64,000 nt of DNA from an uncultured Bacillus sp. (GCA_947085265.1 CAMTVR010000012.1:178180-242179), one strand, 5' to 3'. Shown: positions 19,745 through 49,705, numbered from the stretch's first letter. The notes: generated from the sequence alone by a model not told the origin. Numbers and translations: made by a program.

Positions 19745-19746
19745 TC

Positions 19747-27512: not shown

Positions 27513-27701
27513 TCCAGCACCTCATCGCGGAACCATCATATCATCCGTCATGTCTTATCATTTACGACTCTATTTTAGCGTAAAAAAAGACATTTTCAAA
27601 TAAGTTTACATAAGATTTATTATGTTACATTAAGAATTGGCATATTTATACGAAATCATCTTAATGAAAAATAAATTTAAATTTAAAAATTAATTATCAC
27701 T

Positions 27702-27737
27702 AAAAAAACAGGGGCCCTGGATGTTCGGCTCCCCTTC
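27702..27737 (-). terminator. rho-independent terminator ending the minus-strand sugar-nucleotide operon
   Basis: on the minus strand, an AGGGGAGCC...GGCCCCT hairpin followed by TTTTTTT. Confidence 0.6.
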
Positions 27738-27764
27738 TTTAAGAACGGCCTCTGTGTACGTCAC

Positions 27765-28619
27765 TTATCCATGCCCATAACCGTAACCCGGGTGTGTGCG
27801 GATCCACTCGCGCAATTCTGCGAGTGCTTCCTGATACGGCGTGACGGCGTAGGTGAAATCGGAGCGGGTGTTGACCAAGCTCTTGTCGGCGGTGATCCTG
27901 TCGCAGGGGCGTATCGTGATGTCTTCACGGCCAAACGCCTCCTTGAGCCAAAGCAGCAGCTGATACTTGGATATTTTCCCAGGCGTGGCCAGATGCACCA
28001 ATCCGGCAATCACCGGTTTTCGCAGCACCCAGTCGATCGCCTTGGCTAATTCCAGCGTGGTCACGCCGTTCCAGAATGCCCTGCGGTAGCCCTGCACTAC
28101 CCCTTTCTGATTCATGAACCAGTGGAACAAGCCGATGCCGTCCTTGAGTTCAGGACCGATGATTGAGGTGCGTATGGTGAGGTGGCCGCCATACGTCACC
28201 TCTCCCAAGCTTTTGGTCTTCGCGTAAGCGGTCATGCCGTCGGTGACATCTTCTTCCGTGTATTCTCCCCGCTTGCCGGAAAAGACGCAGTCCGTGCTGA
28301 TGTGGATCAGCCGAAAACCCATTTTTTCGCCAAGACGGGCCACCTGGTGGGGAAACAAGCTGTTGACGCAAATTGCGTCGAAGAGACGGCGGGAAGCCTC
28401 TTCGTTGAGAAGGCCTGTCGCATTGATCACGACATCGGGACGGACGAGGCGGATCGCCTGGGCCACTGCCGCTTGATCGGTGACGTCCAAACTGATTGCA
28501 TGAGGATCATCTGATTTTTCCCGCACGGTATGCCACACGTCATGCCGGCCGCATTCCGACAGGTGCGCCCGAATGACGTGCCCGGCCATGCCGTTGCCGC
28601 CAAACACCAGGACCCTCAA
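27765..28619 (-). CDS. RmlD-type SDR reductase; FnlB/Cap5F-like candidate (UDP-2-acetamido-2,6-dideoxy-L-hexose pathway reductase)
   Basis: RmlD substrate-binding-domain family; TTG start at 28619 overlaps the upstream stop as TTGA with GAGAGGGGGA RBS; the 60 upstream codons of the ORF track overlap the previous gene and are rejected. Confidence 0.7.
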   Translation of the reverse strand: MRVLVFGGNGMAGHVIRAHLSECGRHDVWHTVREKSDDPHAISLDVTDQAAVAQAIRLVRPDVVINATGLLNEEASRRLFDAICVNSLFPHQVARLGEKMGFRLIHISTDCVFSGKRGEYTEEDVTDGMTAYAKTKSLGEVTYGGHLTIRTSIIGPELKDGIGLFHWFMNQKGVVQGYRRAFWNGVTTLELAKAIDWVLRKPVIAGLVHLATPGKISKYQLLLWLKEAFGREDITIRPCDRITADKSLVNTRSDFTYAVTPYQEALAELREWIRTHPGYGYGHG

Positions 28620-30691
28620 TCGAGAAATCCCCCTCTCTTCAGCATGTGTGCGATTTGCTCGTGTGTCATCAAAGATGACTGGGAGGTATACTCGCGAAAT
28701 GGCACAGGCTGTAGGGACCCGTATTGCCGGACAAGCGCCGGAGACGGATGTTCGGGCAGGACGATAAAGTACTGCTCCCCATAGCAATACGTGCGCGTCG
28801 TTTCGTAGCGGGAAACGAGCACCTCGTGCAGCTTCTCACCGGGACGGATGCCAATTACCTGGATGGGCACCGGTGCGATGGCCAGGTGTTCCCGCATGAC
28901 GATGGCCAGATCATGGATGTTGCATGCGTTCATTTTCATCACAAACGTCTCTCCCCCGATCGACACTTCGGCGGCCTTCAGCAGCAGTTCGATCGCTTCG
29001 GGCAGGGTGAGGAAAAAACGGGTCATGTCTTTGGAGGTGAGCGGAATCGGATTGCCTGCCAGGATCTGTTCGCGAAAAAGCGGGACGACACTGCCGTTGG
29101 TGCCCAGCACGTTTCCTCCCCGGACGCAGACGAAACGTGTCTTTTCACTAAGATTGTTGGCGCGGATCACCAGCCGTTCGCCCAGCCCCTTGGTCATGCC
29201 GTAAACGTTGACCGGTTCGACCGCTTTGTCGGTGGATACGTCGATCACCTTGTGAACCCCTTGGGCGATGCTGGCCCGGATGACGTTTTCGGTTCCCATG
29301 ACGTTGGTCTTGAGCGCCTCTGCCGGCTGATTCTCGCAGATCGGAACATGTTTCAACGCGGCCAAGTGAAAGACGTAATCCACGCCCGCGCACGCATCCC
29401 AAACGGCCTGGCAATCCCGTACATCCCCGATACGGAACTTGAGCGAGGGATGGTTGTCAAAAACCCGCTGCATCTGGACCTGGGCGTATTCGTTGCGGGA
29501 AAAGATGCGGATTTCTTTCGGGCGTTTCGCCAAAAGCCTGCGGGTCAGTTCCCGTCCCCATGAGCCGGTCCCGCCGGTTACCAGAATGGTTCGTCCTTCA
29601 AACATGGCGGAGCCCCCCCCCAATATGAAACGGACCACTTTCATCGATACGTTGGGGTCCTTGTACCCTTCGGGGCACTCCCAAGAACGGGAGGTGCCGA
29701 TCATCAGGCGAACACAGGCGGCGATTCGTTCCGGTTCCAGACCGGATACCGTATTGCTGCCGCATAATACCGTTTCGGGCCGCTCCGTCGATTGCCGGAT
29801 GGTGACCGCCGGGACGCCAAGGAGACAGCTCTCCTCTTGCACGGTGCCGCTGTCCGTCACGACGCAGCGGGCCTTTTTTTGCAGTTGGACAAAATCAAAA
29901 AATCCGAACGGCTCACACCACTTGATCAGCGGATGGGACGGATCGAGGGAGAACTGTCGGAAACGGGAACGGGTGCGCGGATGGACACTGCAGACAATCG
30001 GCAGCCCCGTCTGTTCAGCGACCAGCTTCAGGCCAGTGAGGATGTTGCGCAGCCTCCGTTCATTGTCGACGTTTTCGGCGCGGTGTGCCGTCACCAGGAT
30101 GTACTGGTTTGCGGCGAGACCGAGTCGCTCCACGATGTCGCTTCGCTCGATCCGTCCCCGATAGTGCTCCAGAACTTCATAGATGGGGTTGCCGCACACC
30201 CAGACGCGCTGCGGATCGATCCCTTCCCGCAGGAGATTTTCCCGCGCGACGGGTGTATACGGCAGGTTGTAGGAGGAGATGGCATCGATGATCTTGCGGT
30301 TGATTTCCTCCGGCACGGTCATATCGTAGCAGCGGTTTCCCGCTTCCATATGGTACACCGGCATTCCCAAACGCTCGGCCAGCACGGCGCAAAGCGCGCT
30401 GTTGGTGTCGCCGAGCACCAGGATGCGGTCGGGGCGTTCTGCGAGCATCAGCTGTTCCACTTGAGCGAATATCGTACCAACCTGTCTTCCAAATGAATGG
30501 GCATTTATTTGCAGTTTGTGGTCGGGTTGGCGAATGCCCAATTCCTCAAAAAAGATTTCGTTCAACAAGCGTTCGTAATTTTGTCCTGTATGAACCAACA
30601 CGTGGCGTGAGGCGAGGAGGTCAAGACGGGGTATGATCCGGCTCAGGCGGATCAATTCGGGACGTGTTCCGAGGATTGTCATCACTTTCAC
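28616..30691 (-). CDS. bifunctional fusion: N-terminal UDP-N-acetylglucosamine 2-epimerase (WecB/FnlC-like) fused to C-terminal UDP-GlcNAc 4,6-dehydratase (Polysacc_synt_2; Cap5E/FnlA/PseB-like)
   Basis: N-terminal domain MTILGTRPE...HMEAGNR...PEEINR is WecB-like; C-terminal domain LVTGGTGSWG...YGMTKGLGE...GTNGSVVP closely resembles Cap5E/FnlA; the two domains share a continuous reading frame; start GTG 30691 or ATG 30682 downstream of AAAGGAGG. Confidence 0.8.
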   Translation of the reverse strand: MKVMTILGTRPELIRLSRIIPRLDLLASRHVLVHTGQNYERLLNEIFFEELGIRQPDHKLQINAHSFGRQVGTIFAQVEQLMLAERPDRILVLGDTNSALCAVLAERLGMPVYHMEAGNRCYDMTVPEEINRKIIDAISSYNLPYTPVARENLLREGIDPQRVWVCGNPIYEVLEHYRGRIERSDIVERLGLAANQYILVTAHRAENVDNERRLRNILTGLKLVAEQTGLPIVCSVHPRTRSRFRQFSLDPSHPLIKWCEPFGFFDFVQLQKKARCVVTDSGTVQEESCLLGVPAVTIRQSTERPETVLCGSNTVSGLEPERIAACVRLMIGTSRSWECPEGYKDPNVSMKVVRFILGGGSAMFEGRTILVTGGTGSWGRELTRRLLAKRPKEIRIFSRNEYAQVQMQRVFDNHPSLKFRIGDVRDCQAVWDACAGVDYVFHLAALKHVPICENQPAEALKTNVMGTENVIRASIAQGVHKVIDVSTDKAVEPVNVYGMTKGLGERLVIRANNLSEKTRFVCVRGGNVLGTNGSVVPLFREQILAGNPIPLTSKDMTRFFLTLPEAIELLLKAAEVSIGGETFVMKMNACNIHDLAIVMREHLAIAPVPIQVIGIRPGEKLHEVLVSRYETTRTYCYGEQYFIVLPEHPSPALVRQYGSLQPVPFREYTSQSSLMTHEQIAHMLKRGGFLD

Positions 30692-30744
30692 ATCCAATGA
30701 GCCTCCTTTCCTCACTTTCCTTCCTCCAAAGTTCAAGACTGAGC

Positions 30745-31458
30745 TCATTCCGCTTCTTTCGGGAGCAAGAGGTGTTTCCACTTGGGAAATTCCTCATTGG
30801 CCCTCGTGAAATCCGCCGGCTGGCCGATGTCCATCCAGAACGCATCATTTTCATAATGCCGAACCGTCTCTCCTTTTTCCAAAAGCGCTTGGATCAGATC
30901 TGGGATGTCGAAAAACTGCCGTTCCGGGATGTACTCAAGAATGAGTGGATCCATCATGTAGATCCCCATACTGACATGGGCATTGCGCAGCGGTTTCTCG
31001 ATGAATCGGATGACACGTTCTCCCTCCGTCTCCAGCACACCAAGGTTGATGGGCACGTGTTTTTGTTGCGATGCGACGGTCATGATGCTGCGTCCGGACG
31101 TGTGAAACTCCCAGAACGCACGAAACGACAATGTGGTCAGTATATCGCAGTTGATGAGCAAAAACGGCTCGGACAAGTGGGTGAGCGTCTTAAGCGGTCC
31201 TGCCGTCCCGCGGGGTTCCGTTTCCACCTGATAGGCAATCGAGACGCTCCACGCACTCCCGTCGCCAAAATAGCTCTGGATCAAGGAAGCCCGATAACCG
31301 CATGCCATTGTGATGTTGGTGAAACCGTGGTATTGGAGCTGTTTCACGATGATTTCCAGAATCGGCTGATCTCCTACCGGCAAAAGTCCTTTGGGCAGCA
31401 CCTTGGTGTACGGCATCATGCGTACGCCTCTGCCCCCGGTCATGATGACAGCATCCAC
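30745..31458 (-). CDS. sugar-1-phosphate nucleotidyltransferase (NTP_transferase; short RmlA/RfbF/HddC-like)
   Basis: MTGGRGVRMMPYTKVLPKGLLPV nucleotidyltransferase signature; GTG start 15 nt after the upstream stop with GAGAGGGGGAA RBS. Confidence 0.8.
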   Translation of the reverse strand: MDAVIMTGGRGVRMMPYTKVLPKGLLPVGDQPILEIIVKQLQYHGFTNITMACGYRASLIQSYFGDGSAWSVSIAYQVETEPRGTAGPLKTLTHLSEPFLLINCDILTTLSFRAFWEFHTSGRSIMTVASQQKHVPINLGVLETEGERVIRFIEKPLRNAHVSMGIYMMDPLILEYIPERQFFDIPDLIQALLEKGETVRHYENDAFWMDIGQPADFTRANEEFPKWKHLLLPKEAE

Positions 31459-31473
31459 GGTTGATTCCCCCTC

Positions 31474-32466
31474 TCACACGATGTACTCGGTCGGACGCTG
31501 ATATAAGTGCTTGTGGCGCATCATCCAGTCAATCGTCCGCTGCAGGCCTTCTTCCAGAGTCACAGATGGCTTCCATCCCAAGACGACTGCTGCCTTGCTG
31601 CTGTCAGAAAACAGCCGATCCACTTCGCTTTTTTTCGGCCGTAGCCGGTTTTGATCCACCCGCACCGGCAAATCCCGGCCCATTCGCTCGAGAATCATGC
31701 GGGCCAAATCCCGCACCGAGATTTCAAACCCGGAACCGACGTTGAACAAATCGCCGACCGCTTTGTCCTCTTCGGCCGCGTATAGAAACGCCCGCACGGT
31801 ATCTTCCACAAAAGTGTAATCTCGTGTTGGCGACAAGTTTCCCAATACTATTTCCGAGCGGTGAAGGGCCTGGTTGATAATCGTCGGAATGACCGCCCGC
31901 ATGGACTGATGCGGACCGTAAACGTTGAACGGGCGAATGGTTACCACTGGCGTGTTGTACGAACAGTGGAAGCTCTCTACAAGCTTGTCGGCCGCTATTT
32001 TGCTTGCCGAATACGGAGACTGTCCCTGAAGCGGATGGGTTTCGTCCATTGGCACGTAACGTGCAGTGCCGTACACCTCGCTCGTCGACGTGTGTACCAT
32101 GCGGGGAATGCCCAGATCCCGGACCGCCTGGAGCACGTGCAAGGTGCCGAGCACATTGGTCTCGACGACTTCTGTGGGGTTACGGTAAGAATACGGGATG
32201 GCGATCAGCGCGCCAAGGTGAAACACCGCATCGACACCCTTCACAGCCTGATAAACCGCTTGAGGGTCCCGCAAATCTCCCTTGACAACCTCAATTTCCT
32301 TGAGTTGATCGGCCGGCAGATGCTCGAGAAACCCGAGCGTATTGAGCGAATGGTAGCGCACAAACGCGCGGACGGTCGCGCCAGACATGACGAGCAGCTG
32401 AGTCAGGTGGCTGCCGATAAAACCAGATGACCCCGTCACCAGCACTGTTTTTCTTCTGATGTCCAT
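31474..32466 (-). CDS. NAD-dependent epimerase/dehydratase family protein (extended SDR, RmlB-like sugar 4,6-dehydratase or 4-epimerase)
   Basis: TGSSGFIGSHL Rossmann motif, TSTSEVYG, YSASK catalytic Tyr/Lys; start ATG 32466; the ORF track N-terminal extension is rejected. Confidence 0.75.
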   Translation of the reverse strand: MDIRRKTVLVTGSSGFIGSHLTQLLVMSGATVRAFVRYHSLNTLGFLEHLPADQLKEIEVVKGDLRDPQAVYQAVKGVDAVFHLGALIAIPYSYRNPTEVVETNVLGTLHVLQAVRDLGIPRMVHTSTSEVYGTARYVPMDETHPLQGQSPYSASKIAADKLVESFHCSYNTPVVTIRPFNVYGPHQSMRAVIPTIINQALHRSEIVLGNLSPTRDYTFVEDTVRAFLYAAEEDKAVGDLFNVGSGFEISVRDLARMILERMGRDLPVRVDQNRLRPKKSEVDRLFSDSSKAAVVLGWKPSVTLEEGLQRTIDWMMRHKHLYQRPTEYIV

Positions 32467-32512
32467 CTTCTTTCCCAACCCTTCTGATGCAGTTGTTCTT
32501 GATGCCTGTGTA

Positions 32513-34494
<1,982 letters not shown>

Positions 34495-35859
34495 TTACCC
34501 TTTTTGTATTCCATTCCGGATCTCTTCCCAGGACAAAGCGAGATGAACCGTATCTTCTTCCGACTGGTTTCCGAATTGCACTTCGATGATGTCCAGATCT
34601 TTGGAAGCTATGACGGCGTGCCTGGCTCCGGCCGGAAGTTCCCATACAGCGCCCGGACAAATGGAGAAAATCCGTCCGTTCAAGACCAATTCCCCCTCTC
34701 CGGCCGCCACGATCCACACCTTGCGGCAATGCGTGTGATACCGATAGCTGAGATGCTTACCCGCGCGGAGATGGATTTTCCGGGTCAATGCTTCATGATT
34801 CTGATCATCCAATACGCGAGACCAGCCCCAGCCCCGTTCCTCATACTTCACGCGTTTGGCAATCGCTGGTGCGGCATTTTTCACGAGGTTGCTCTTGGCT
34901 TTGTCCGCGACCAGGATTCCGTCCGGGCTCGCAGCAACCACCACATCCGAAACGCCAATCGTGACCACAGGAATTTCCAATTCGTTCAGAATGTGCACAT
35001 TCTTGCAGTCCACGCATTTTGCAAACGCTTCGTCTGTTCCGTCCATCTCCTGCGTGATTTCATTCCAGGTGCCCAAATCTTTCCAAAAACCAGAATAAGG
35101 AATCACCACCGCCTGACTGGCGTTTTCAACAATTTCATAATCAAAACTGATTTTTGGCAAATTCCCATATTCCTGCAGCATTTTTTCATAGTCCGTGGGC
35201 CACCCTCTTTTGGCCAATTCTTGGATCACATCACCCAACCGGAAGGCAAAAATGCCGCTGTTCCACAAGGCACATTGCGTGAAAAGCTGGTGCATCTCCC
35301 GCTCCTGCGGTTTTTCCTTAAAATACTGCACTTTTTGGTAGGCGATTTCAGAAGCCAGGTCCGTCTGTTCCCCGGAGGGAACAATGTAGCCGTATTGGGA
35401 TGACGGGTAGGACGGCGCTATGCCAATCAGGGCAAGTGCCGCGCCCGAGTGATGAATCACTTCCTCCAATTGTTTCATCTTCACAAAAAACGCATCGTCC
35501 GCATGAAAATCGACAGGCATCACTGTGATTACATCCGAACAATCGACACGCTGTTTTGAATAAAAATACGTTGCCGCCAATGCGATTGCCGGGAATGTAT
35601 CCCGTGGTTCAGGCTCAATGATCAGTGGCACTTCAGTTCCCAACTGATCGTGCACGAGATCGACATGCGTTTGCGACGTTGCAATGTACGCATCACTGGA
35701 CGGCAGATGTTCCTCCAGTTTTCTCCAGGTCCGTTGAACCATGGACTCTTTTTCGCCTTTTGGATGATGGAATATTTTTAAAAACGGTTTGGAACGCAGA
35801 TGATGGGAGAATGGCCACAACCTTTTTCCTGATCCCCCCGCAAGGAGCACCAATTTCAT
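34495..35859 (-). CDS. manC: mannose-1-phosphate guanylyltransferase / mannose-6-phosphate isomerase (type II PMI-GMP, ManC/XanB)
   Basis: LAGGSGKRLWP nucleotidyltransferase N-terminus plus C-terminal cupin (PMI) domain; ATG 35859 with GAGGTG RBS. Confidence 0.85.
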   Translation of the reverse strand: MKLVLLAGGSGKRLWPFSHHLRSKPFLKIFHHPKGEKESMVQRTWRKLEEHLPSSDAYIATSQTHVDLVHDQLGTEVPLIIEPEPRDTFPAIALAATYFYSKQRVDCSDVITVMPVDFHADDAFFVKMKQLEEVIHHSGAALALIGIAPSYPSSQYGYIVPSGEQTDLASEIAYQKVQYFKEKPQEREMHQLFTQCALWNSGIFAFRLGDVIQELAKRGWPTDYEKMLQEYGNLPKISFDYEIVENASQAVVIPYSGFWKDLGTWNEITQEMDGTDEAFAKCVDCKNVHILNELEIPVVTIGVSDVVVAASPDGILVADKAKSNLVKNAAPAIAKRVKYEERGWGWSRVLDDQNHEALTRKIHLRAGKHLSYRYHTHCRKVWIVAAGEGELVLNGRIFSICPGAVWELPAGARHAVIASKDLDIIEVQFGNQSEEDTVHLALSWEEIRNGIQKG

Positions 35860-36075
35860 TGTCCGCACCTCTATCCCCTTCGCTTTTACGACCATCATAT
35901 GTACAGGTGTGAAAAGGTGATCTATCCCACCCCGCAAAAATGGTCGTCTTTCCCGAGATCTCGTGCGGCATGTGCAACCGTCCAATCCAAACAAGCGGCA
36001 GGATCATATGGTAAAAGTGTTCACGCGCCAAGTTGATATGGCAAGAACGTCAAAAAACCTGGGAAGGGGATGAAC

Positions 36076-36921: not shown

Positions 36922-36976
36922 CGACCAACCATCATGCGGCAAACGCCGGGCGGGAATGAAGCGACCGCACTGATTT

Positions 36977-38188: not shown

Positions 38189-38299
38189 TGCGGTGAACAC
38201 GCGTTTTTCGGGAAGCGACGAATGGGAACGCGCGCGCCAGCCGGCGCCATTGGAGGTGCCCGCTTAACCCACTAAACTGAAAGCGATGGAGTGATCGAG

Positions 38300-40629: not shown

Positions 40630-40686
40630 TTCCACAGGATCGGGAAATCCTTGAGAACTGCGCTCATGGGAGGGAGGGATTTTTCT

Positions 40687-41388: not shown

Positions 41389-41411
41389 GGCGCCTACAGG
41401 CGTCACTATCA

Positions 41412-41759
41412 TTACTCCAAGTATAGCTTTGTCTCCACGACGGCCGCCGCGCCGGCCGCGGCCAGCACGACCAGGATGGGAAAAGCGGCCGGCACCAAGA
41501 AGTACAAGGCAACGATCGCTGTGGAAGACCAGATGCCGACACACCAGTGACAGCTGAGGAGTATCCCTAGCCAGCGGCGAAAGCCTGAACCCTTCAGGTG
41601 GATGTGCCGTACCACCTGGCCGGAAGGGTCGGCTTCATAGGAAACGCTGAAAAACGGTTCACGCAAAAACGACATGATGTCGTCATAAACAATCAAATGT
41701 GTCAAACGAAAGCTGGCCAATACGATAATCACGAGATGGAGCCACGTCATCTCAAACAT
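41412..41759 (-). CDS. DUF1360-family small membrane protein
   Basis: about 115 aa, two to three TM helices, HLIVYDDI motif typical of Bacillus DUF1360 proteins; ATG 41759 with GAGGAAG RBS. Confidence 0.5.
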   Translation of the reverse strand: MFEMTWLHLVIIVLASFRLTHLIVYDDIMSFLREPFFSVSYEADPSGQVVRHIHLKGSGFRRWLGILLSCHWCVGIWSSTAIVALYFLVPAAFPILVVLAAAGAAAVVETKLYLE

Positions 41760-41862
41760 CAGTTCCACTTCCTCGTTAAGATTTGTTCCTGATTCACGCG
41801 CGATGCAAAAGCCGGACATGCCTGAAAAATTCACAGGCCTGTGCGCGCCGTTTTTTGTTTCG

Positions 41863-43140
41863 TCAGCACGACACCGCGATCCGATTGTTGGAGGAAAATT
41901 GCACCTGCTGTTCGCGGAAAAAGATGAATCCTTCGATCGTCACGCTGTTGCCGGATTCCGGTGTCATCACGGTCATCTGGAAGTTTTGGAAAGGATGGAC
42001 TTCCTTTGGCGCGATACGCACCGGCTGAACCGGAGCGATCCAGTACTCCCCCCGCTCCTTTGCCTTCTCAAACCAGTCTTCCTCCAGAAATCTCCAGCCC
42101 CTTACACCCATAGGACTTTGCACGCCGAGCGTCTCCACCATGTTGGCCGGCAAAATCTGCCCGCCCAGTTTGACGCTGCCAGGGGGATCGGCGCGCAAGC
42201 AAACGACCGGGTTGATCAATGCTTCCGTTCCTGTATTTTTGACATATAGGTTTCCGAAGATCAAAAACGGCTTACCCTCGATGTCGGAGCGGAGCACGGT
42301 GTAATCAAAAAACACCTCGGCAGCCAACTCTCCCTGTTCCGGCAGCCGGCTTGCTGCTTCGTCGATCGGCTCGCCGACCGGCTTCTCCCAGGCACTGGGC
42401 AACCTCCGTGTTTCCCTCTCCCCCTTCTCGAGCATCGGGGGTGTTGCCGCCAACATCCGCAAAACAGCGGGAGTCAGACAGGAGAGTGGCGAGATTTGCT
42501 GTTCTGTCAGCAAGTAGCGAAGGATGCCGGACGCGAAAAAGAAGGCTATCCGCTCTGCCCACTCCTTCCAGGCCGTTTGCGCCATGCTGGTCGGAAGCTG
42601 GCAGCAAACCTCGACAAATGCGTGGAACGGCTGGCACCCGCGCCGCCATTCGGTTGCGCACGGTATCCCCGCGCTCTTCCATTCTGTCTCCAGACAGTGC
42701 ACCAATGCTTGGTTGCACCGGCTTTCATGCTGAATGATAGTCATTCGGGGCGGAAGCCCGATGTCTGCCTTTTCGATGGTAAATTGTACGCATACATCCT
42801 TCTGTTCCGGCCAGTCCAACCGGTTCGGCGACAGAGCGACGCTCACCCCAGCGGCGGTGAGAAATCGTTCCGTCAGTGCCAAAATGTCCCGTTCATGTGG
42901 ATGGAAATCGGTTGCGGCGGGAACCTGTCGGTGCCTATCCTCCAGCACACACATTTTCCCTTTGAGCCCCGGCGCGAGAACAATCCTGTTTTCTTTTGGC
43001 TCCCACTGAAAGTGAAACCCGCTTTCTTGACAAAACAGACGAAAGGCAGGCAGTGATGTGAAAGGGATCGTCCCACACGTTTGACCAGCGTAAAAAACCG
43101 CAACATCATCCATCCCAAATCCCCCTTCTTTATCGGTCAT
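41863..43140 (-). CDS. hypothetical protein (425 aa, Cys-containing central region, no recognisable domain)
   Basis: long ORF with GAGGGAGGGG RBS 7 nt before the ATG at 43140; co-directional with the DUF1360 gene. Confidence 0.55.
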   Translation of the reverse strand: MTDKEGGFGMDDVAVFYAGQTCGTIPFTSLPAFRLFCQESGFHFQWEPKENRIVLAPGLKGKMCVLEDRHRQVPAATDFHPHERDILALTERFLTAAGVSVALSPNRLDWPEQKDVCVQFTIEKADIGLPPRMTIIQHESRCNQALVHCLETEWKSAGIPCATEWRRGCQPFHAFVEVCCQLPTSMAQTAWKEWAERIAFFFASGILRYLLTEQQISPLSCLTPAVLRMLAATPPMLEKGERETRRLPSAWEKPVGEPIDEAASRLPEQGELAAEVFFDYTVLRSDIEGKPFLIFGNLYVKNTGTEALINPVVCLRADPPGSVKLGGQILPANMVETLGVQSPMGVRGWRFLEEDWFEKAKERGEYWIAPVQPVRIAPKEVHPFQNFQMTVMTPESGNSVTIEGFIFFREQQVQFSSNNRIAVSC

Positions 43141-43250
43141 TCCGCATCCCCTCCCTCTTCCCCTCTTGCTTCATAGGCTGCTACGTGTTCATTGTATGTA
43201 CGCCCATCAGAAAGAGTGCCGGTCGGTGCGAATGCCCGCGGCAAACGGGT

Positions 43251-43277
43251 ACCTGCGCTCGGTTTTGGCATAGGATG
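43251..43277 (+). promoter_or_regulatory. possible mother-cell sigma-K-like promoter (AC-16nt-CATAGGATG) upstream of the ppGalNAc-T-like gene
   Basis: matches AC-N16/17-CATANNNTA except for the final base; by sequence only. Confidence 0.25.
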
Positions 43278-43299
43278 TCAGGAAGGAAGGAGTGAGCCA

Positions 43300-44181
43300 A
43301 TGTCTGACGGACACATGCCTTTTGTTTCCTTAATCATTCCGGCCAAAAACGAAGGGAATAACGTGCGTGCGACCGTTGAATCGGCATTACGCGTAAAAAC
43401 CCACCACCCTTTTGAGATCATCATCGTGGATGATGGTTCTACAGACGGATGCTGCGCGTTTTTGGCATCCGGAGAAAACGAACAGATCAAATTAATCACG
43501 ACTCAGGGAATTGGGGCTGCCCCTGCCAGAAACCTGGGTGCTGAGCATTCACTGGGAGAATACCTCATCTTTTGCGACGCCCACTTGTTCTTCCAGGACT
43601 ATTGGATGGATCAGTTGCTGGGACTGATCCGGACGGGACAAGCGAACGCCGTGTCCCCCGGCATCGCTTCGACAAACCGGCCGAATCTCGTCGGGTACGG
43701 CCAGACACTGAACCGCATGTTGGGCGTACAGTGGAACCGGCAAATATCCGTTCCCGCACCTACGGCGATTCTGCCGGGCGGATGTTTGGCCATGACGAGA
43801 GACGTCTTCTTCGATGTGGGCGGATTTGATCGGGGATTTCAGGTTTGGGGGTTTGAAGATGTGGAGATCTCGCTCAAGCTGTGGCTATTTGGCTACCAGT
43901 GCTACGTGCAGCCGGCAGTCAAGGTGTTCCATCTGTTTCGCGAATCTCACCCGTACCGCGTGACATTCGACCACGTATACTACAACATGCTTCGGATGGC
44001 CTACAGCCATTTTAACGAATCTCGGATCGCCTCTTGCCGCAGCTTGATTCACCACGCAGATCCAGCCCGGATCGAGGAAGCTGTATTGGCTGGTGGCGTG
44101 CTGGAACAGCGGAAACGCTACTTCGCGCGCCGGAAGTACGACGACGAATGGTTCATGCGCCGGTTCGGAATCCCGTTCTGA
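43300..44181 (+). CDS. GT-A glycosyltransferase resembling the catalytic domain of polypeptide N-acetylgalactosaminyltransferases (GT27-like / GT2; no lectin domain)
   Basis: block-wise match to the ppGalNAc-T catalytic domain: EIIIVDDGS, FCDAH (DxH), Gal/GalNAc-T motif WGFEDVEISLKLWLFGYQ (compare WGGENLEISFRVWQCGG), and HLFR (compare HVFR). Confidence 0.7.
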   Translation: MSDGHMPFVSLIIPAKNEGNNVRATVESALRVKTHHPFEIIIVDDGSTDGCCAFLASGENEQIKLITTQGIGAAPARNLGAEHSLGEYLIFCDAHLFFQDYWMDQLLGLIRTGQANAVSPGIASTNRPNLVGYGQTLNRMLGVQWNRQISVPAPTAILPGGCLAMTRDVFFDVGGFDRGFQVWGFEDVEISLKLWLFGYQCYVQPAVKVFHLFRESHPYRVTFDHVYYNMLRMAYSHFNESRIASCRSLIHHADPARIEEAVLAGGVLEQRKRYFARRKYDDEWFMRRFGIPF

Positions 44182-44311
44182 GAACACTGCGGATGGGAAA
44201 ATATACCTGGAATATTCACCTAAAAAATAGGCGTTTGTTTACAAGCAAAATGCCCTCCTCAACATAGTATGTATTGCGTAAAACACCACCTAGGAAAGGG
44301 AGGGTTCATAA

Positions 44312-45571
44312 TTGGTAAGGCAAATCAGACCCATCAAGGGTTTTCAAGTTCCGACGCCGACGCCGACCGCACCCGCGCCGATTCCGAACAATCTGCAAGA
44401 AGAATGCATCCGCGTTCAAAAGGTGTACGACTGGGTCGTGACCGCGAACCGGGATCAAAACAAAGTTCAAATTCCTAGCGACTGTCTGGCTCTTGTCAAC
44501 GAAGCCATCCAGGCCGGGCAAAATATCACTGTTCAATGTGTGGAGCCGGTCATCCCTTCACCATTCCCGATCATTCCGAAACCGCAGCCGACGCAGGGAC
44601 TCGACTTCTCCTGCCGGATCATCAGCATTCGCCGGGAAAACATCGTTATCGGGGGCAACGTCGTCCGGGTCGGCATTGTCCGCTTTCTCTTCAGTGCTAC
44701 GCTGCTGATCCGTGTTTTTGCCGACGGCACGCTGTTATGCGAATTTCCAGCCACTGTCCAGTTCGACGATGAAATCGTGCTCTGCCTGCCAGAACCGCTC
44801 GACGAAGACAACATCCTCTGCCGGATTACCGCGGTTGAGTGCACGCCGCTGGAGCCCATCCTTGGCGGCCAAATTCTGATTGACGTGGTCATTTGCAAAG
44901 AAATCCAGGTGGAAGCGGAAGTGAAGCTGGAGGTATTGGCAAAATTTTGCCAGCCTCGCCCAGCCGACATACCCGTACCGACACCCACGCCGCCAGCATT
45001 CCACTGCCCACCAGTCATCTTCCCGGCACAATGCCCAGAGATCTTCCCGCGTCAAAACTGCGACTGCCAGGCAACTGCCAACGTCATTCTCACCAATTCG
45101 ACCGTGCTGTTTGACGGCGTAGCGGAAGTCGGCACGGAACAATTAATAGCCGAGATCTGCCCGAACTGCAATCCGGGAGACAGTACCTTCTCTTATACCT
45201 TTGTCGACACGATCTCACCCACACCGACACCCACGCCTACCGACGAAGTCCCTGGCGATTTCAGCTTCGTCTTCACACCGGTACAAATCAGTACACCTGT
45301 TTGCTCAGCGATCCCTGGCGGCGGCCTGCAGGCCGTGGTCACCGGTACAGGAACCCGCACATTCACCGCAACCGGCACACAGGATACCCTTGCCTACGAG
45401 CTAACGCTGCGTGAACTGCCCGGCCTCACGGACGAATACCGCCTCATCCTGCGCAACGCGCTGGGTGCCATCGTCTTCGACACCGGGTTCAAGACAGTTC
45501 CGGACGCCAACCTCATCGTCCAAGACTGCATCACCTTCCCGGATGTCATTCCGGCGCCATCTGTGCCCTAA
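44312..45571 (+). CDS. cysteine-rich three-module protein with Thr-Pro linkers (TPTPT), no signal peptide; candidate glycoprotein substrate / spore-surface structural protein
   Basis: TTG start 7 nt after GGAAAGGGAGGG RBS; three TP-rich linkers (VPTPTPTAPAPIP, IPVPTPTPP, ISPTPTPTPTDE) separate Cys-rich modules; own terminator downstream. Confidence 0.65.
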   Translation: MVRQIRPIKGFQVPTPTPTAPAPIPNNLQEECIRVQKVYDWVVTANRDQNKVQIPSDCLALVNEAIQAGQNITVQCVEPVIPSPFPIIPKPQPTQGLDFSCRIISIRRENIVIGGNVVRVGIVRFLFSATLLIRVFADGTLLCEFPATVQFDDEIVLCLPEPLDEDNILCRITAVECTPLEPILGGQILIDVVICKEIQVEAEVKLEVLAKFCQPRPADIPVPTPTPPAFHCPPVIFPAQCPEIFPRQNCDCQATANVILTNSTVLFDGVAEVGTEQLIAEICPNCNPGDSTFSYTFVDTISPTPTPTPTDEVPGDFSFVFTPVQISTPVCSAIPGGGLQAVVTGTGTRTFTATGTQDTLAYELTLRELPGLTDEYRLILRNALGAIVFDTGFKTVPDANLIVQDCITFPDVIPAPSVP

Positions 45572-45594
45572 TCCAAATCACGCGCACAAACATG

Positions 45595-45630
45595 CGGGAG
45601 AACAACAGATTCTCCCGTATTTTCATTTCT
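45595..45630 (+). terminator. rho-independent terminator after the Cys-rich protein gene
   Basis: CGGGAGA-loop-TCTCCCG stem followed by TATTTTCATTTCT. Confidence 0.7.
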
Positions 45631-45741
45631 GTGTACCAAGAAACAAGAAAAGAGAAGGTTTACCCGTTGTCTTTATGCACATTTTCCTCCCTGTTACATA
45701 TGTCTATAGGGAAAAGCACACGGAATGGAGGAAAATATGCG

Positions 45742-47499
45742 ATGTCACTAAAAAAGAAACCCTCCGGAAAATTGAACCTGATTAAAGAACAGATGACCAT
45801 GCTAAAACGGCAAAGGGCTTACTATCAAACAAAAGCGACGCAATACAGCGAGGAACTCAATGATCTGAAAGAAAGATTGAGAGAAAGTATCCAACGCGAT
45901 CATGAAACCAGCAAACACATGGAGCAGTTAAACGCCGCGCTCATGCGATACCAAGACAAAGAAAAAGAATGGAACGGTGTTGTTGAACAACTATACAACA
46001 AAATCAACGACTTTGAAAAAAGGGAGGCCGATTACCTGTACTTGCTTGAACAAAAAGAAAAATCCATTGCCCATTATCAAAAGAAGCTGGGCACATGGGA
46101 AAAAAGGTTTGAAGAATTAAATGAAAAACTCAAAAAGTTTTCAGAATCGCCACATACGCCAGATTACCAACAGTTGCTGGCGCAAAAAGACGAATCGCTC
46201 GCCCATTATCAGGCGCTTGAAGCAGAATGGAACCAAGCATTGGAAAAACTGAACCAGAAGATTGAGAAGCAAAGGCAAAAGGAGGAAGAATACCGCCAAC
46301 AACTTGCCCAGCTCCACCAACAACTTGCCAATTACGAGGAAAAAGAAGCGGAAAACAGCCGACTCTTGGAACAAACGGAGTTGGCGTACCGAAAACTTCT
46401 TGACCAAAAAGACGAAGAACTACGTCAGCTGACCGAACAAAAAAAAGACCTGATCCGGCACCTTGAAGCTCAACTATCTGAATCGCGGCAACAGCTTGCC
46501 CAGCTCAACCAGCGCCTCGCGGCCTGCCAGGAAAAAGAAACCGAATATAGCCACCTTTTGGGGCAAACAGAGGCGAGATACAGAAAGCTGATTGAGCAAA
46601 AGGAAGCAGAATTTCTCCAGCAATTGCAGCAAAAAAACGAACAGCATCGGCAATTGATTGATCAAAAGGACCATCTGATTCAACGCTTGGAAGCCCTTCA
46701 AGCCGAATCGGAACAGCGCCTCGCCGACCTCCACCAACAACTTGCCAATTACCAGGAAAAAGAATCTGAAACGCTTAAATGGCTAGGTGAAACGGGTGAA
46801 AAACACAGGCAGCTGCTCACAAAAAAAGAGACGGAATTTAGGAAACTGATCGAACAGAAGGACAAGGAATACCGTCAGATCCTGGAACAAAAGGAAACAG
46901 AATACCTCCAGTTCCTGGAGGAAAAAGGGAAGGAATATCGGCAACTTTTGGAGCAAAGGGACGAGGAATATCGCAAGCTGCTGAAAGAAAAGGACAGGAT
47001 GATTGCCCGTTTTGAAGCGCGAGAAGAAGAACTTGAGCAACTTCTGCGGCAAAAAGAGCAGACGATTGCCCGCTATCAAGCCATGGCACTGGAATGGAAA
47101 CAGAATCTGCGTTCTCCCATTCACGAGGAAGAACACTTGGAACAGCTGAAAGAGAACCAAGAGAGCTTATCCGAATACCGGAAACTGCTGCAACAAAAAG
47201 ACGAAGTGATTGCACAGTACGAAGAAAAGGAGCTGGAATGGAAACAGGCGATGGAACAACTGCAACAGCGAATCAGGGAACTGGAAGAGAAAGAGGAGAA
47301 ATACAAGAAGGCGATCAGTGATTATCAGGAAAAGGAGGCAAAATACAAAAAAGCTTTGGAGCAAAACAGCTTTGTGGAACCAAAGGAAGTTACCGTTTCC
47401 ACACTGCTCAACGGCGCTGTCTATGGCAGCCATGCAACGTTTCTCAAGCCGCATCACACCTCTCAGTCCGCACCGTTTAATCCGTTTAAAAACATGTAG
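45742..47499 (+). CDS. long coiled-coil repeat protein (Q/E/K-rich; roughly 11-aa repeats of type K-E/D-x-E-Y-R-x-L-L-E-Q)
   Basis: ATG 45742 10 nt after GGAGGAAAA; about 586 aa with heptad-like periodicity; repetitive at both DNA and protein level. Confidence 0.65.
   Translation: MSLKKKPSGKLNLIKEQMTMLKRQRAYYQTKATQYSEELNDLKERLRESIQRDHETSKHMEQLNAALMRYQDKEKEWNGVVEQLYNKINDFEKREADYLYLLEQKEKSIAHYQKKLGTWEKRFEELNEKLKKFSESPHTPDYQQLLAQKDESLAHYQALEAEWNQALEKLNQKIEKQRQKEEEYRQQLAQLHQQLANYEEKEAENSRLLEQTELAYRKLLDQKDEELRQLTEQKKDLIRHLEAQLSESRQQLAQLNQRLAACQEKETEYSHLLGQTEARYRKLIEQKEAEFLQQLQQKNEQHRQLIDQKDHLIQRLEALQAESEQRLADLHQQLANYQEKESETLKWLGETGEKHRQLLTKKETEFRKLIEQKDKEYRQILEQKETEYLQFLEEKGKEYRQLLEQRDEEYRKLLKEKDRMIARFEAREEELEQLLRQKEQTIARYQAMALEWKQNLRSPIHEEEHLEQLKENQESLSEYRKLLQQKDEVIAQYEEKELEWKQAMEQLQQRIRELEEKEEKYKKAISDYQEKEAKYKKALEQNSFVEPKEVTVSTLLNGAVYGSHATFLKPHHTSQSAPFNPFKNM
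46100..47330 (+). repeat. internal tandem repeat region of the coiled-coil gene
   Basis: recurring DNA units (for example caacaacttgccaattac[cg]aggaaaaagaa at about 46321 and about 46738; repeated gaacaaaagga... units); produces the many spurious antisense ORFs listed in the ORF track. Confidence 0.7.
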
Positions 47500-47779
47500 A
47501 AGATGATGGATTGCAACTGCACCGTGACGAGAATCTCTCCTTCCTTCTTTTATCATTGGTACAAACGCCGTTACCTCCTGAGCGGGGTTCGAATAAACAT
47601 ATTATGACATTGCCAGAAAGGAAGGGATCAAATGACCCACGATCAGCTTCGCGCGTTATACAGGCAACGGCAAATGAGACCCGTCCGATCGGAATATTAC
47701 CCGAAAGGAATGTCGACCAGCCTGAATTCAGGGAAACAAACCGGGAGTTCTGTCCGTATGGTCAAACCACTCTCCCAAA

Positions 47780-48226
47780 ATGCTGCCGGCTGCTGCGGAC
47801 GACGCTCTTTACATTAACGCAACGGGAGGCGTTTTTCCGGTAGCCCAACGTGTCTGGGATGAAATGGTGAGGCATTGCCTGGAACAACTGCCAAATGAGG
47901 CATGTGGGCTCCTTTCAGGAAAGCGCGGTAGAGCAGAAACGATCTGGAAGATGGATAACATGGAGCACAGTCCTGTTTCATTTTCAATGGACGAGGGACA
48001 AATCCGAAGCGTATTTCATGGATTGGACAAAATGGGTGAAGAGCTGGTTGGGATTTATCACTCCCATCCGACTGCGCCCGCCTATCCTTCCCCGCATGAC
48101 ATGGAACACGCAACTTACCCGGAGGCGGCGTACTTGATCGTTTCCCTTGCCAACCTTCAACCATGGGTCGGGTGCTTCCGCATCCGCGGGAAGCAAGCTA
48201 TCCCTTTGCCCATTTTCATTTTTTGA
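47780..48226 (+). CDS. Mov34/MPN/PAD-1 (JAMM) family metalloprotease-like protein
   Basis: EACGLL...YHSHP....SPHD JAMM motif (E-x(n)-HxH-x(7)-S-xxD); start uncertain (ATG 47780 or 47864). Confidence 0.7.
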   Translation: MLPAAADDALYINATGGVFPVAQRVWDEMVRHCLEQLPNEACGLLSGKRGRAETIWKMDNMEHSPVSFSMDEGQIRSVFHGLDKMGEELVGIYHSHPTAPAYPSPHDMEHATYPEAAYLIVSLANLQPWVGCFRIRGKQAIPLPIFIF

Positions 48227-48244
48227 AGGAATCACAAAGAAAGG

Positions 48245-48290
48245 TGGCCCCTGCTTTTCACAGTTTTGACGCAAAAGGGGCCAACTTTTT
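48245..48290. terminator. bidirectional terminator between the JAMM gene (+) and the MFS gene (-)
   Basis: GGCCCCT...AGGGGCC stem followed by TTTTTCTC on the plus strand; overlaps the MFS stop codon. Confidence 0.5.
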
Positions 48291-49445
48291 CTCGTGTGTA
48301 ACAAACGCAAACAGCAACATGACTGACAGCAACGTAATACAGGCTGTGACAAGAAATGGCAGGTGAATATTGGCCGAATACAGCATTGTTGCCAAAAGCG
48401 GCCCGATAATTCTTCCCAGATTGTCCATTGACGTAACCAAACCAGTCGCCACCCCATGTCCTGCGGTGGATTTTTTTGTGACCAATGAAGTGATCAGAGG
48501 ACGAATGAGCGTATTGCCAGCTCCAAAAATCACCACAAATAATGTCGCGGTCCAAAAGTTAGAGGAAAAGAGAATTAATACCATCCCCAGCGACGACACG
48601 AGAAGTCCAATCCCAACCACACGAAGCTCGTGTCCTGGTTTCACTCGCCGCACCACTCCTCCTTGGATCAGGGCGCCGACGATGCCGCTAATGAGCAGGA
48701 TCAGCCCAATTTGGGTTGGCGTAGCCTGGATCTTTACCATTTGATAATACTGTAGCGTCGCTTCCAGGCCGGCAAGTCCATAGGAACCGATAAAAGAAAT
48801 CGCGTAAAGATACTTCAGCGATCCAGTAAATGCTTTCCAACGGGATGTTTTTTGGGTTGCATGTTTTTTCTGTCGGGCTGTCAAGGGCAACGACTCATCG
48901 AGATAAAAAAACGCAAACAAGGTTAACAGCAGAGCAAGCGCCGACGATACAAAAAATGGAAAAGCCAGACCAAAATGGCTGAGAAACCCACCGACGGCAG
49001 GGCCGATGATGAACCCAAGTCCAATGGACATTCCAGCCAGACCCATTCCTTTGTTGCGTTCTTCCTCACTGGTAATATCAGCGATATACGCCATTGCTAC
49101 CGATGTGGCAGCGCCGGAAAAACAGCCCCCTAAGATGCGGGAGATGTACATTAACCAAAGTTTGTCTGTGGCCATGCCGAAGAGAAAGAAACTGATCGCG
49201 TATCCGACAAGTCCTATCATGATCAAGGGACGCCTTCCATATCGATCCGATAATCCTCCCCAAACCGGAGACAGGATAAAAGAAAAAAAGGCATAAATGG
49301 ATAAGAGCCATCCCAAGTGATAAGGCGCAGCCCCCGTCTCTTGAACCAACACAGGCATCACCGGAATAATCAGGCCAAATCCGATAAAAATCGTGATCAA
49401 CAGCAGCATCACGATACCGATTCGTTTGTCCAATGTACTAGCCAA
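48258..49445 (-). CDS. MFS transporter (multidrug-efflux/TetA-like, 12 TM)
   Basis: GGLSDRYGRRPLIMIG MFS signature motif A; hydrophobic periodicity. Confidence 0.85.
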   Translation of the reverse strand: MASTLDKRIGIVMLLLITIFIGFGLIIPVMPVLVQETGAAPYHLGWLLSIYAFFSFILSPVWGGLSDRYGRRPLIMIGLVGYAISFFLFGMATDKLWLMYISRILGGCFSGAATSVAMAYIADITSEEERNKGMGLAGMSIGLGFIIGPAVGGFLSHFGLAFPFFVSSALALLLTLFAFFYLDESLPLTARQKKHATQKTSRWKAFTGSLKYLYAISFIGSYGLAGLEATLQYYQMVKIQATPTQIGLILLISGIVGALIQGGVVRRVKPGHELRVVGIGLLVSSLGMVLILFSSNFWTATLFVVIFGAGNTLIRPLITSLVTKKSTAGHGVATGLVTSMDNLGRIIGPLLATMLYSANIHLPFLVTACITLLSVMLLFAFVTHEKKLAPFASKL

Positions 49446-49636
49446 TTCGCGCAGCCCCCTGCCTAATGTATAATAGAGACCTGTCTTGACTTAGCCGATG
49501 CGGGATGTGTGGATACAACCCTATTTTAGCTGAAAGTGACGTGAGATTCAAAAGAGTTAACATAAGATATGTTATGTATCTATTATATCACAAAAATTCA
49601 TGTTATTATCATAATTAAATCAAGGGAGCTAAATCA

Positions 49637-49669
49637 AGGAAGCCAGACGTTCGGCTTCCTTTTGCTGTT
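49637..49669. terminator. hairpin downstream of tkt (AGGAAGCC-AGACGTTC-GGCTTCCT), likely the tkt terminator
   Basis: perfect 8-bp stem; T-rich on the plus side, weaker on the minus side. Confidence 0.45.
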
Positions 49670-49705
49670 CTCCGTTACTGTTCTCAGAGAATGTTTACAA
49701 AGAAG

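Follow-up and report, generated by a model that had tools for sequence, protein, structure and literature searches.

A probable spore-surface locus with a swappable glycan cassette between lexA and tkt in an uncultured Bacillus sp.

The DNA considered here, a 64,000-nucleotide stretch from an uncultured Bacillus sp. (GCA_947085265.1 CAMTVR010000012.1:178180-242179) that is referred to below as the window, carries a block of genes between lexA/ndh and tkt in which open reading frame (ORF) calling, together with Pfam and NCBIfam profile searches, identified three nucleotide-sugar routes, one methyltransferase (MT) and five soluble glycosyltransferases (GTs). An initial annotation had proposed the same content, the GTs being given as three GT2 enzymes, one GT4 and one ppGalNAc-T-like enzyme, and the profile searches bear this out; a Cys-rich TP-linker protein, a coiled-coil protein and a DUF1360 protein, which it had also placed in the block, were all found. 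We consider it probable that 27.7-48.2 kb is a sporulation locus which makes and decorates the outermost layer of the spore and which contains a swappable glycan cassette. Its function, and with it when the genes are expressed, which sugars they make, which protein accepts these and by what linkage, we infer from the lines of evidence set out below.

Gene content of the lexA-tkt interval

A leftward operon, running from about 35.86 to 27.77 kb, comprises manC, an fcl-like gene, gmd, a LegB-like gene, a nucleotidyltransferase gene, a WecB/PseB-type ORF and an RmlD-like reductase gene, and divergent from it is a rightward operon encoding an MT of the Methyltransf_9 fold followed by GT2a, GT2b, GT4 and GT2c. 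Two leftward genes come next, encoding a DUF1360 membrane protein and a 425-aa protein (unk425), and then a rightward set consisting of the genes for a GT27-like enzyme and the Cys-rich TP-linker protein, a terminator, and the coiled-coil, 61-aa and Prok-JAB ORFs. To the right of the JAB gene lie a Tet-type major facilitator superfamily (MFS) gene and then tkt. The genes of the locus are as follows.

27765-28607, minus strand: RmlD-like NAD(P)-dependent sugar reductase, final gene of the sugar operon that runs leftward (PF04321, 84 bits)
28616-30691, minus strand: WecB-type UDP-GlcNAc 2-epimerase and PseB/FnlA/CapD-type UDP-GlcNAc 4,6-dehydratase in one ORF (PF02350, 310 bits; PF02719, 324 bits)
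30745-31458, minus strand: sugar-1-phosphate nucleotidylyltransferase (PF00483, 131 bits; 84% identical in the relatives L025 and L030)
31474-32466, minus strand: LegB-like NDP-sugar 4,6-dehydratase (TIGR04180, 431.8 bits, just below the cut-off of 475; PF16363)
32513-33487, minus strand: GDP-mannose 4,6-dehydratase, gmd (TIGR01472, 419.3 bits against a cut-off of 415)
33523-34479, minus strand: GDP-L-fucose synthase-like, fcl (NF047922, 312 bits, the best match but under the cut-off of 500)
34495-35859, minus strand: mannose-1-phosphate guanylyltransferase, manC, first gene of the leftward operon (TIGR01479, 187 bits; PF00483, PF01050)
36070-36921, plus strand: SAM-dependent MT, Methyltransf_9/CmoB fold (PF08003, 41.8 bits)
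36977-38188, plus strand: GT2a, GT2 glycosyltransferase with a C-terminal extension of about 200 aa (PF00535, 116 bits)
38291-39616, plus strand: GT2b, GT2 glycosyltransferase with a C-terminal extension (PF00535, 118 bits)
39613-40629, plus strand: GT4 glycosyltransferase (PF00534, 71 bits; only 64-67% identical in the closest relative)
40651-41388, plus strand: GT2c, GT2 glycosyltransferase (PF00535, 99.5 bits; 65% identical in L030)
41412-41834, minus strand: DUF1360 small membrane protein of the core module, three hydrophobic segments (PF07098, 110 bits)
41863-43140, minus strand: unk425, core-module protein of 425 aa with an N-terminal Amidase_3-fold domain and a C-terminal beta-sandwich (no family match in profile searches)
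43300-44181, plus strand: GT27-like soluble glycosyltransferase, 294 aa, directly upstream of the coat gene (PF00535; PF02709, 31.9 bits)
44312-45571, plus strand: BMQ_0737-family morphogenetic spore coat/outer-layer protein (NF052457, 103.7 bits against a cut-off of 71, E 1.4e-29)
45742-47499, plus strand: coiled-coil protein of 585 aa with internal repeats (repeat families D2-D5)
47632-47817, plus strand: peptide of 61 aa with the C-terminus ..GCCGRRSLH, directly upstream of the JAB gene (no Pfam match)
47864-48226, plus strand: Prok-JAB (JAMM) metalloprotease with an intact HSH..S..D motif, last gene of the core module (PF14464, 83.7 bits)

The Cys-rich TP-linker protein matches the BMQ_0737 family profile at positions 2-198 of 199 with its residues 32-246, contains 18 Cys, and has (TP)n linkers at about residues 13, 220 and 302. 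All of the named sequences among its 171 homologues come from spore-forming Bacillales; the closest named homologues among the matches listed are from Brevibacillus, and B. megaterium BMQ_0737 itself is not among the best 120 matches. Its AlphaFold (AF2) model (pLDDT 80.6) is all-beta and resembles no solved fold closely. In B. megaterium QM B1551, BMQ_0737 is found in the outermost spore layers, with outermost coat and exosporium proteins, and antiserum binds it on intact spores (PMC4656864); an outermost position and a need for the protein in keeping these layers intact are known only from that species. For the window protein a similar position would gain indirect support from the conserved CATA-box promoters and the lack of a signal peptide. 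The (TP)n linkers were also considered as a mark of the acceptor of the GT27-like enzyme, an idea that co-occurrence across genera does not support. In a set of Brevibacillus proteins (P0007, P0008, P0032, P0036, P0044, P0084, P0085 and P0260), a BMQ_0737-type region is fused to other C-terminal domains, namely HYR, YncE-type beta-propeller, Kelch, choice-of-anchor A and SBBP repeats, the shared part covering the first 35-53% of the BMQ_0737-type sequence (about 92% in P0007/P0008). This shared region resembles an anchor by which variable domains would be displayed on the spore.

The other core proteins keep company with BMQ_0737 homologues across genera: the DUF1360 gene lies beside them in Brevibacillus, B. 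xiapuensis, Peribacillus and Numidum, as does the JAB gene in all four genera. A literature search combining DUF1360 with spores found nothing. The Amidase_3-fold domain of unk425 is probably inactive, and the coiled-coil protein, 55% identical in L030, has a B. brevis orthologue that keeps both the N- and the C-terminus (..NPFK). Small ORFs with CCG(R/Q)R near the C-terminus occupy the position of the 61-aa peptide in L030, L002, L003, L027 and L029, and a CCG-tailed small ORF lies upstream of Prok-JAB in Brevibacillus, B. xiapuensis and Numidum. The JAB protein also matches the desampylase model NF041370 (70 bits, below cut-off), and its pairing as a JAMM protease with the CCG peptide hints at C-terminal processing.

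The best PDB matches of the GT27-like enzyme are the human polypeptide GalNAc-transferases T2, T10 and T1 (E 2.5e-21). Over the 215 residues aligned with human GalNAc-T2 the DxH, Gal/GalNAc-T and HxFR motifs are in register, reading CDAH/LDSH, WGFEDVEIS..W/WGGENLEIS..W (i.e. VWGFEDVEISLKLW/VWGGENLEISFRVW) and VFHLFRESHPY/VGHVFRKQHPY (FHLFR/GHVFR) in the window protein and GalNAc-T2; the features of the GT-A catalytic domain of CAZy GT27 (the Mn-binding DxH, the Gal/GalNAc-T motif and the third His) are thus present, with roles that we take to be those of GalNAc-T2. The protein has neither a ricin-type lectin domain nor a type-II anchor, the match stopping at residue 298 of a 501-residue construct; because the anchor and the lectin domain are missing we call it GT27-like, and not a full member of GT27. 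Its gene is syntenic in Brevibacillus and B. xiapuensis (53% identical in the latter) and tightly linked to the coat gene in these two genera, and the enzyme is the likeliest candidate for the initiating protein O-glycosyltransferase of the locus.

Among the remaining transferases, GT2a and GT2b are tandem paralogues, with 84% nucleotide identity over the first 300 nt, and GT2b is 46-50% identical to the single GT2 that follows the MT in other Brevibacillus, most of which have one copy there. The MT, presumed to be a sugar O-methyltransferase, has orthologues of 59-65% identity at the same position in Brevibacillus. Relatives of it that are 48-53% identical were also seen in metagenome-assembled genomes of cyanobacteria, Nitrosotalea (archaeal) and Desulfobulbaceae (L019-L022), in two of these loci near SDR (short-chain dehydrogenase/reductase) or GT2 genes, and it seems to be a widely shared sugar-modifying enzyme.

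The leftward operon starts with manC, whose syntenic counterparts in 15 Brevibacillus species genomes share 52-53% identity with it. In the WecB/PseB ORF the epimerase domain passes the wecB model TIGR00236 (260 bits against a cut-off of 210), whereas the dehydratase domain stays below the cut-offs of both PseB (308 against 408) and FnlA (270 against 730). The initial annotation had called this ORF an FnlC/FnlA fusion and its neighbour an FnlB-like reductase. A single ORF is indeed present, but what keeps it in one frame is a run of nine G at 29613-29621 (G9, read as C9 on the plus strand); L025 and L026, two close relatives, have G6A there and two overlapping genes instead. The fusion may be genuine, the site may be prone to slippage, or the assembly may be at fault. 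The reductase, which has a GTG start at 28607 and is 87% identical to a 280-aa gene in L025/L026, is RmlD/WbvR-like (TIGR01214 rmlD, 86 bits, under cut-off) and gave no match to the FnlB/WbjC-type model NF047837; it is probably the 4-reductase of the 6-deoxy-HexNAc route. With FnlA below its equivalog cut-off, PseB scoring higher and the reductase RmlD-like, these genes do not qualify as the FnlA/FnlB/FnlC pathway to UDP-L-FucNAc. The dehydratase, reductase and epimerase presumably fit a WbvB/WbvR/WbvD-like L-RhaNAc/L-QuiNAc scheme equally well.

Membrane and export functions were sought by a hydropathy scan of every ORF of at least 60 aa in six frames across the whole 64 kb. The only polytopic membrane ORFs in the window are PgsA (PF01066), DUF1360, the MFS protein, which is most similar to tetracycline and drug efflux pumps, and a holin-like protein. 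The absence of Wzx, Wzy, Wzz, a priming transferase and an ABC exporter, already claimed for the block, extends to the whole 64 kb, which also contains no ABC-2 permease, polysaccharide ABC exporter or O-antigen-ligase-like gene. No transmembrane segment or signal-peptide-like N-terminus was found in the five GTs, the MT or the structural proteins, and no processive or polymerase-like membrane synthase is present, all GT2s being soluble. The combination of nucleotide-sugar enzymes and soluble GTs, without lipid-carrier or export machinery, is that of an sps/cge-type cluster, and not that of a polysaccharide locus dependent on Wzx/Wzy or on ABC transport (Wzm/Wzt, TagGH). The single ABC ATPase (54205-55005) is of the ModF/ECF/heme type and has no ABC-2 permease. 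This ATPase and a low-molecular-weight phosphotyrosine phosphatase (53.6-55.0 kb) were considered as export or regulation parts and rejected on account of the ModF/ECF type and the missing permease; the pair is moreover cut off from the block by tkt, maoC and fabG, and is kept whatever the cassette.

Conservation, base composition and promoters

For the comparison within Brevibacillus one genome per species was queried with the MT, which gave 14 loci, B. brevis was added by exact look-up, and gene order was checked by tBLASTn. All 15 species genomes have the core order manC / MT-GT2 / DUF1360-unk425 / GT27-like-coat-coiled coil-JAB. These comparison loci covered 10 kb of flank, so that the lexA side of the B. 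brevis-type loci lay outside them; on the right, the flank of B. brevis-type loci differs (ETF genes). In B. brevis CP134050.1 (L003) genes for GT2-TPR, BclA_C/C1q-like and CotH proteins at 18037-21203 lie about 5 kb from the orthologous cluster, a neighbourhood that suggests a larger spore-surface region in this species.

Beyond Brevibacillus, DUF1360, an unk425 homologue, BMQ_0737, a small peptide and JAB occur together in B. xiapuensis and Numidum massiliense, and in Peribacillus frigoritolerans so do DUF1360, an unk425 homologue, BMQ_0737 and JAB (the four that were scored there). The unk425 homologues of B. xiapuensis, Peribacillus and Numidum are 31-33% identical. The GTs between the core genes vary, being GT27-like in B. 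xiapuensis, GT-D-like in Peribacillus, and five Glyco_tranf_2_5 proteins plus a methyltransferase in Numidum.

In the closest relatives, L025, L026 and L030, all from metagenomes (L025 and L026 from the same two samples), the block adjoins lexA-ndh and MFS-tkt just as in the window, the gene order being mutL-miaA-hfq-AAA-ynbB-lexA-ndh on the left and JAB-MFS-tkt-maoC-fabG on the right. Identity to L030 is mosaic (coat 97%, tkt 92%, GT4/GT2c 64-65%, flanks 81-97%). Roughly 7 kb of the window, 32454-39592, holding gmd, fcl, manC, MT, GT2a and GT2b, has no nucleotide match in the closest relative, L030, while the rest matches; an extra SDR, a 146-aa ORF, a GT4 and a GT2 take its place there. Outside this segment GT4 and GT2c are 68-71% identical in DNA to the closest relative, against 81-86% elsewhere. 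Since the relatives share the junctions and the core order is genus-wide, we regard the locus as old and fixed in place, with only the cassette varying.

The block had been described as richer in GC at third codon positions (GC3) than its flanks as far as 49.7 kb. The contrast is real, with a mean GC3 of 0.654 over the 16 genes of the block (27765-45571) against 0.530 over 36 genes of the flanks (Mann-Whitney p=4.6e-8), but the genes for the coiled-coil, JAB and MFS proteins resemble the flanks (0.51, 0.55 and 0.52) and the compositional block therefore ends at 45.6 kb, some 4 kb short of the interval first drawn. The closest relatives show the same step (0.64-0.76 against 0.52-0.62). In B. 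brevis the cluster is compositionally like its flanks, with GC3 at 0.62-0.76 throughout B. brevis-type genomes. The raised GC3 and the mosaic identity would fit exchange of the cassette by recombination between conserved flanks, and not insertion of a mobile island.

At the borders of the block, the ndh-like oxidoreductase and the MFS efflux gene share a palindrome of about 22 bp, TTACATAAnATATCTTATGTAA, which occurs in both border gaps (c. 27604-27628 and 49556-49579) just upstream of the sigma-A-like -35/-10 hexamers of these two genes; it is kept in L026 and L030 and absent from L002. The AT-rich border gaps were considered as att-type repeats and rejected, given this shared palindrome and promoter and its retention in relatives. 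Because the element is conserved in relatives, the similarity of the borders is better read as a shared operator than as an att repeat, and the palindrome looks like an operator of the ndh-like and MFS genes for some regulator. No other named Brevibacillus is among the best matches of the ndh-like gene.

Promoters were compared by aligning the intergenic regions of 11 loci, the window and 10 Brevibacillus, and five promoters with CATA-type (sigma-E/sigma-K-like) -10 boxes are kept amid diverged sequence. The regulatory features are as follows.

35893-36013, both strands: divergent promoter region of manC and MT, with boxes kept in 10-11 of 11 loci while their surroundings diverge
43191-43276, both strands: divergent promoters of unk425 and the GT27-like gene, with the AC-N16/17-CATAnnnT pattern
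44263-44271, plus strand: -10 box of the coat gene, CATAGTATG, the block CA(C/A)CATAGTATGTA being kept in 11/11 loci
45592-45620, plus strand: intrinsic terminator after the coat gene, with an 11-bp stem and a T run behind it; no other terminator-like site of the region is as strong

The -10 box of manC is CATATGATG (minus strand, 35893-35901) and that of MT CATATGGTA (plus strand, 36005-36013; CATATnGTA across loci). Upstream of unk425 lies AC-N17-CATACAAT (minus strand, 43217-43191), in which both CATACAAT and the AC at N17 are kept in 11/11 loci; upstream of the GT27-like gene lies AC-N16-CATAGGAT (plus strand, 43251-43276), whose conserved box across loci is GCATACCATGG, and upstream of the coat gene the box conserved across loci is CACATAGTATGTAAC. 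The pattern AC-N16/17-CATAnnnT occurs 12 times in the 128 kb formed by both strands of the window, and four of the 12 occurrences are correctly oriented just upstream of cotE, the gene after cotE, unk425 and the GT27-like gene. The site upstream of cotE (PF10628, 221 bits), at 14793-14819, has the same AC-N17-CATACAAT elements as the unk425 promoter. No sigma-70-like site scoring at least 10/12 was found ahead of the manC, MT, unk425, GT27-like or coat operons. Strict regular expressions for sigma-K, sigma-E, sigma-G and sigma-F gave almost no matches, and only the relaxed pattern and the cross-species footprints were informative.

Beside these sites we also observed that the gene right after cotE (15489-17026), which encodes a 473-aa COOH-NH2 ligase/ATP-grasp-like protein (PF14395, 278 bits), has a full sigma-K-type consensus, AC-N17-CATACTTTA, in front of it; this gene, too, may be related to the coat.

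A spore-surface reading and its alternatives

In the mechanism that we propose, a structural core (DUF1360, unk425, the BMQ_0737-family protein, the coiled coil, the CCG peptide and JAB), old and widely conserved, would be combined with a glycan cassette that differs between lineages. The manC-gmd-fcl set would provide GDP-L-fucose; the PseB/FnlA-like dehydratase, RmlD-like reductase and WecB-like 2-epimerase would convert UDP-GlcNAc to a 2-acetamido-2,6-dideoxy-L-hexose; and the NTP-transferase with the LegB-like dehydratase would yield a third NDP-4-keto-6-deoxy sugar. The GT27-like enzyme would start protein O-glycosylation. Spore-surface proteins, still in the cytoplasm of the mother cell, would have the glycan assembled directly on them by the five soluble GTs and O-methylated by the MT; as spores form within the mother cell, the process could do without a lipid carrier, flippase, polymerase or exporter. 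Cytoplasmic glycosylation of spore proteins had been suggested by the initial annotation, and that suggestion gains support from the NF052457 match, the proteins free of transmembrane segments and signal peptides, the CATA boxes and the BclA_C/CotH neighbours in B. brevis.

Several points weigh against this reading. The evidence for a spore-surface role consists of family models, synteny, composition, the absence of export genes and promoter boxes. The fcl, manC, PseB/FnlA, RmlD and LegB proteins all fall below equivalog cut-offs, which makes the sugar products guesses, and the nucleotide sugars of the locus could feed vegetative glycans too. The GC3 step, being common to the closest relative, is old and may have causes besides exchange. 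The (TP)n runs and the GT27-like gene do not go together: B. xiapuensis possesses the GT but lacks a TP run, and Peribacillus combines a TP run with another kind of GT. As to the promoters, those of the coat gene, MT and manC have no -35 'AC', a TTGACA-like hexamer in the coat promoter is wrongly spaced, and the consensus used for sigma-E and sigma-K is that of B. subtilis, which we assume to hold in this organism; with -35 elements so imperfect the assignment of the locus to sigma-E/sigma-K-type promoters is suggestive, not proven.

The sugar genes might instead make a free spore polysaccharide, not linked to protein, that forms a mucous or crust-like layer around the coat, the structural proteins merely scaffolding it without being glycosylated. 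Five GTs and three sugar routes do suggest a sizeable glycan, the independence of the TP runs from the GT27-like gene agrees with this idea, and spore polysaccharide layers in B. subtilis depend on sps/cge-type genes (PMC7439481; PMC11708026). We nevertheless think it unlikely, as the soluble GT2s and the lack of a polymerase-like or processive membrane synthase do not suit a polymer of this kind, the GT27-like enzyme has protein-directed catalytic motifs and a tight linkage to the coat gene in two genera, and the spore glycans of the systems studied so far are described as covalently bound to coat or crust proteins (PMC11708026). An envelope glycan of the vegetative cell, such as an S-layer glycan, a secondary cell-wall polymer or an exopolysaccharide whose priming, flippase/exporter and ligase functions are encoded elsewhere, would account for gene families (manC-gmd-fcl, FnlA/WecB-like, GT2/GT4) that are typical of O-antigen, S-layer-glycan and capsule loci; Brevibacillus is generally known to carry S-layers, and our inspection covered 64 kb. 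Within those 64 kb, however, there is no export, priming or ligase gene and no membrane-anchored GT, and the genes are interleaved with the spore coat family and its partners across genera and share divergent CATA-box promoters with them, with no strong sigma-70-type promoter, which makes this explanation highly improbable to us.

The initial annotation had also taken the block to be an inserted island that might be strain-specific. Recent acquisition by this strain or species would explain a GC3 of 0.65 against 0.53; B. brevis-type genomes have values of 0.62-0.76 throughout, and the adjoining ndh-like gene is itself sporadic. This claim is largely refuted by the core order in 15 Brevibacillus species and by the same site, junctions and GC3 step in the closest relative (tkt 92%), from which the block genes are about as diverged as the flank genes. 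As had been noted earlier for integrase and transposase genes, profile scans revealed no integrase or transposase domain, tRNA or Rfam match in the window, and no att-like repeats flank the block, the border similarity being a shared promoter/operator; the marks of a mobile genomic island, i.e. an integrase, tRNA or att repeats and patchy presence, are thus missing, and we give a recent island very little credence.

The probable spore-surface locus would be of interest for several reasons. Spore-surface glycans govern adhesion, hydrophobicity, dispersal, and host and phage recognition, and they have been worked out in few models only, viz. B. subtilis, the B. cereus group and C. difficile. The locus ties the little-studied BMQ_0737 family to defined partners and to a glycan cassette variable even among close relatives, and offers a comparative system for export-free spore glycosylation, the identity of the acceptor and the source of surface diversity, while the GT27-like enzyme, a soluble bacterial relative of the mucin-type GalNAc-transferases, is a candidate tool for protein O-glycosylation. 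A bolder proposal, which we put forward as a speculation with low odds, is a spore-surface assembly module common to many Bacillales (a BMQ_0737-family protein, an inactive amidase-fold partner, DUF1360, CCG peptide and JAMM), in which a bacterial homologue of the animal mucin-type GalNAc-transferases would initiate O-glycosylation of the outer-layer protein in the cytoplasm of the mother cell, the JAMM protease would cleave either the small peptide or the coat protein to allow covalent attachment, and cassette swapping by recombination would give rise to spore 'serotypes' comparable to O-antigens. No description of a BMQ_0737-centred module with a swappable cassette and a GT27-like enzyme was found in the literature searched.

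Comparison with known systems

Variable cassettes between conserved flanks are familiar from O-antigen, capsule and S-layer-glycan loci, which the locus resembles in its sugar-nucleotide and GT2/GT4 families, its atypical composition and its mosaic identity; it differs from them in that the priming transferase, flippase, polymerase or ABC exporter, and ligase are absent from the 64 kb. The GT27-like enzyme, for its part, is shorter than its eukaryotic counterparts, having 294 aa where those have about 570 aa with an N-terminal anchor/stem and a ricin-type lectin domain at the C-terminus. In B. firmus GB1 a homologue has been called a GT27 candidate by CAZy-based annotation (PMC3178493). The window coat protein passes the same family model, NF052457, as B. 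megaterium BMQ_0737, and in the literature searched on BMQ_0737 no link of the family to GTs, DUF1360, the amidase-fold protein or JAB was found.

Among systems of the spore itself, Clostridioides difficile has sgtA directly upstream of bclA3, and SgtA adds the first sugar to Thr of BclA3 with no lipid carrier (PMC7157674). The likeness is one of layout, with a GT gene directly upstream of the gene for a spore-surface protein; the C. difficile acceptor is a collagen-like GPT-repeat protein without linked sugar-nucleotide genes; here the gene in the corresponding position encodes a BMQ_0737-family protein. The spsA-L, spsM, cgeAB/cgeCDE and yfnHGFED genes of B. subtilis likewise include no flippase or exporter, and their glycans on the outermost layer set the surface properties of the spore; the sps genes are sigma-K-dependent and act in the mother cell (PMC7439481). 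Both systems contain a PseB/CapE-type UDP-GlcNAc 4,6-dehydratase, i.e. SpsM in B. subtilis and the WecB/PseB ORF here. The sugars differ, being legionaminic acid and rhamnose in B. subtilis and predicted to be of the fucose and 6-deoxy-HexNAc types here, where there is no aminotransferase or NeuB-type synthase, and so do the structural proteins, which are CgeA and CotVWXYZ in the one and the BMQ_0737 family in the other. A GT27-like enzyme, a JAB protease and a CCG peptide are present here and none has been described for the B. subtilis system, whose genes are scattered over several loci, in contrast to the single locus interleaved with structural genes in the window. As the principle is already known from these systems, what the locus adds is breadth and new parts rather than a new concept.

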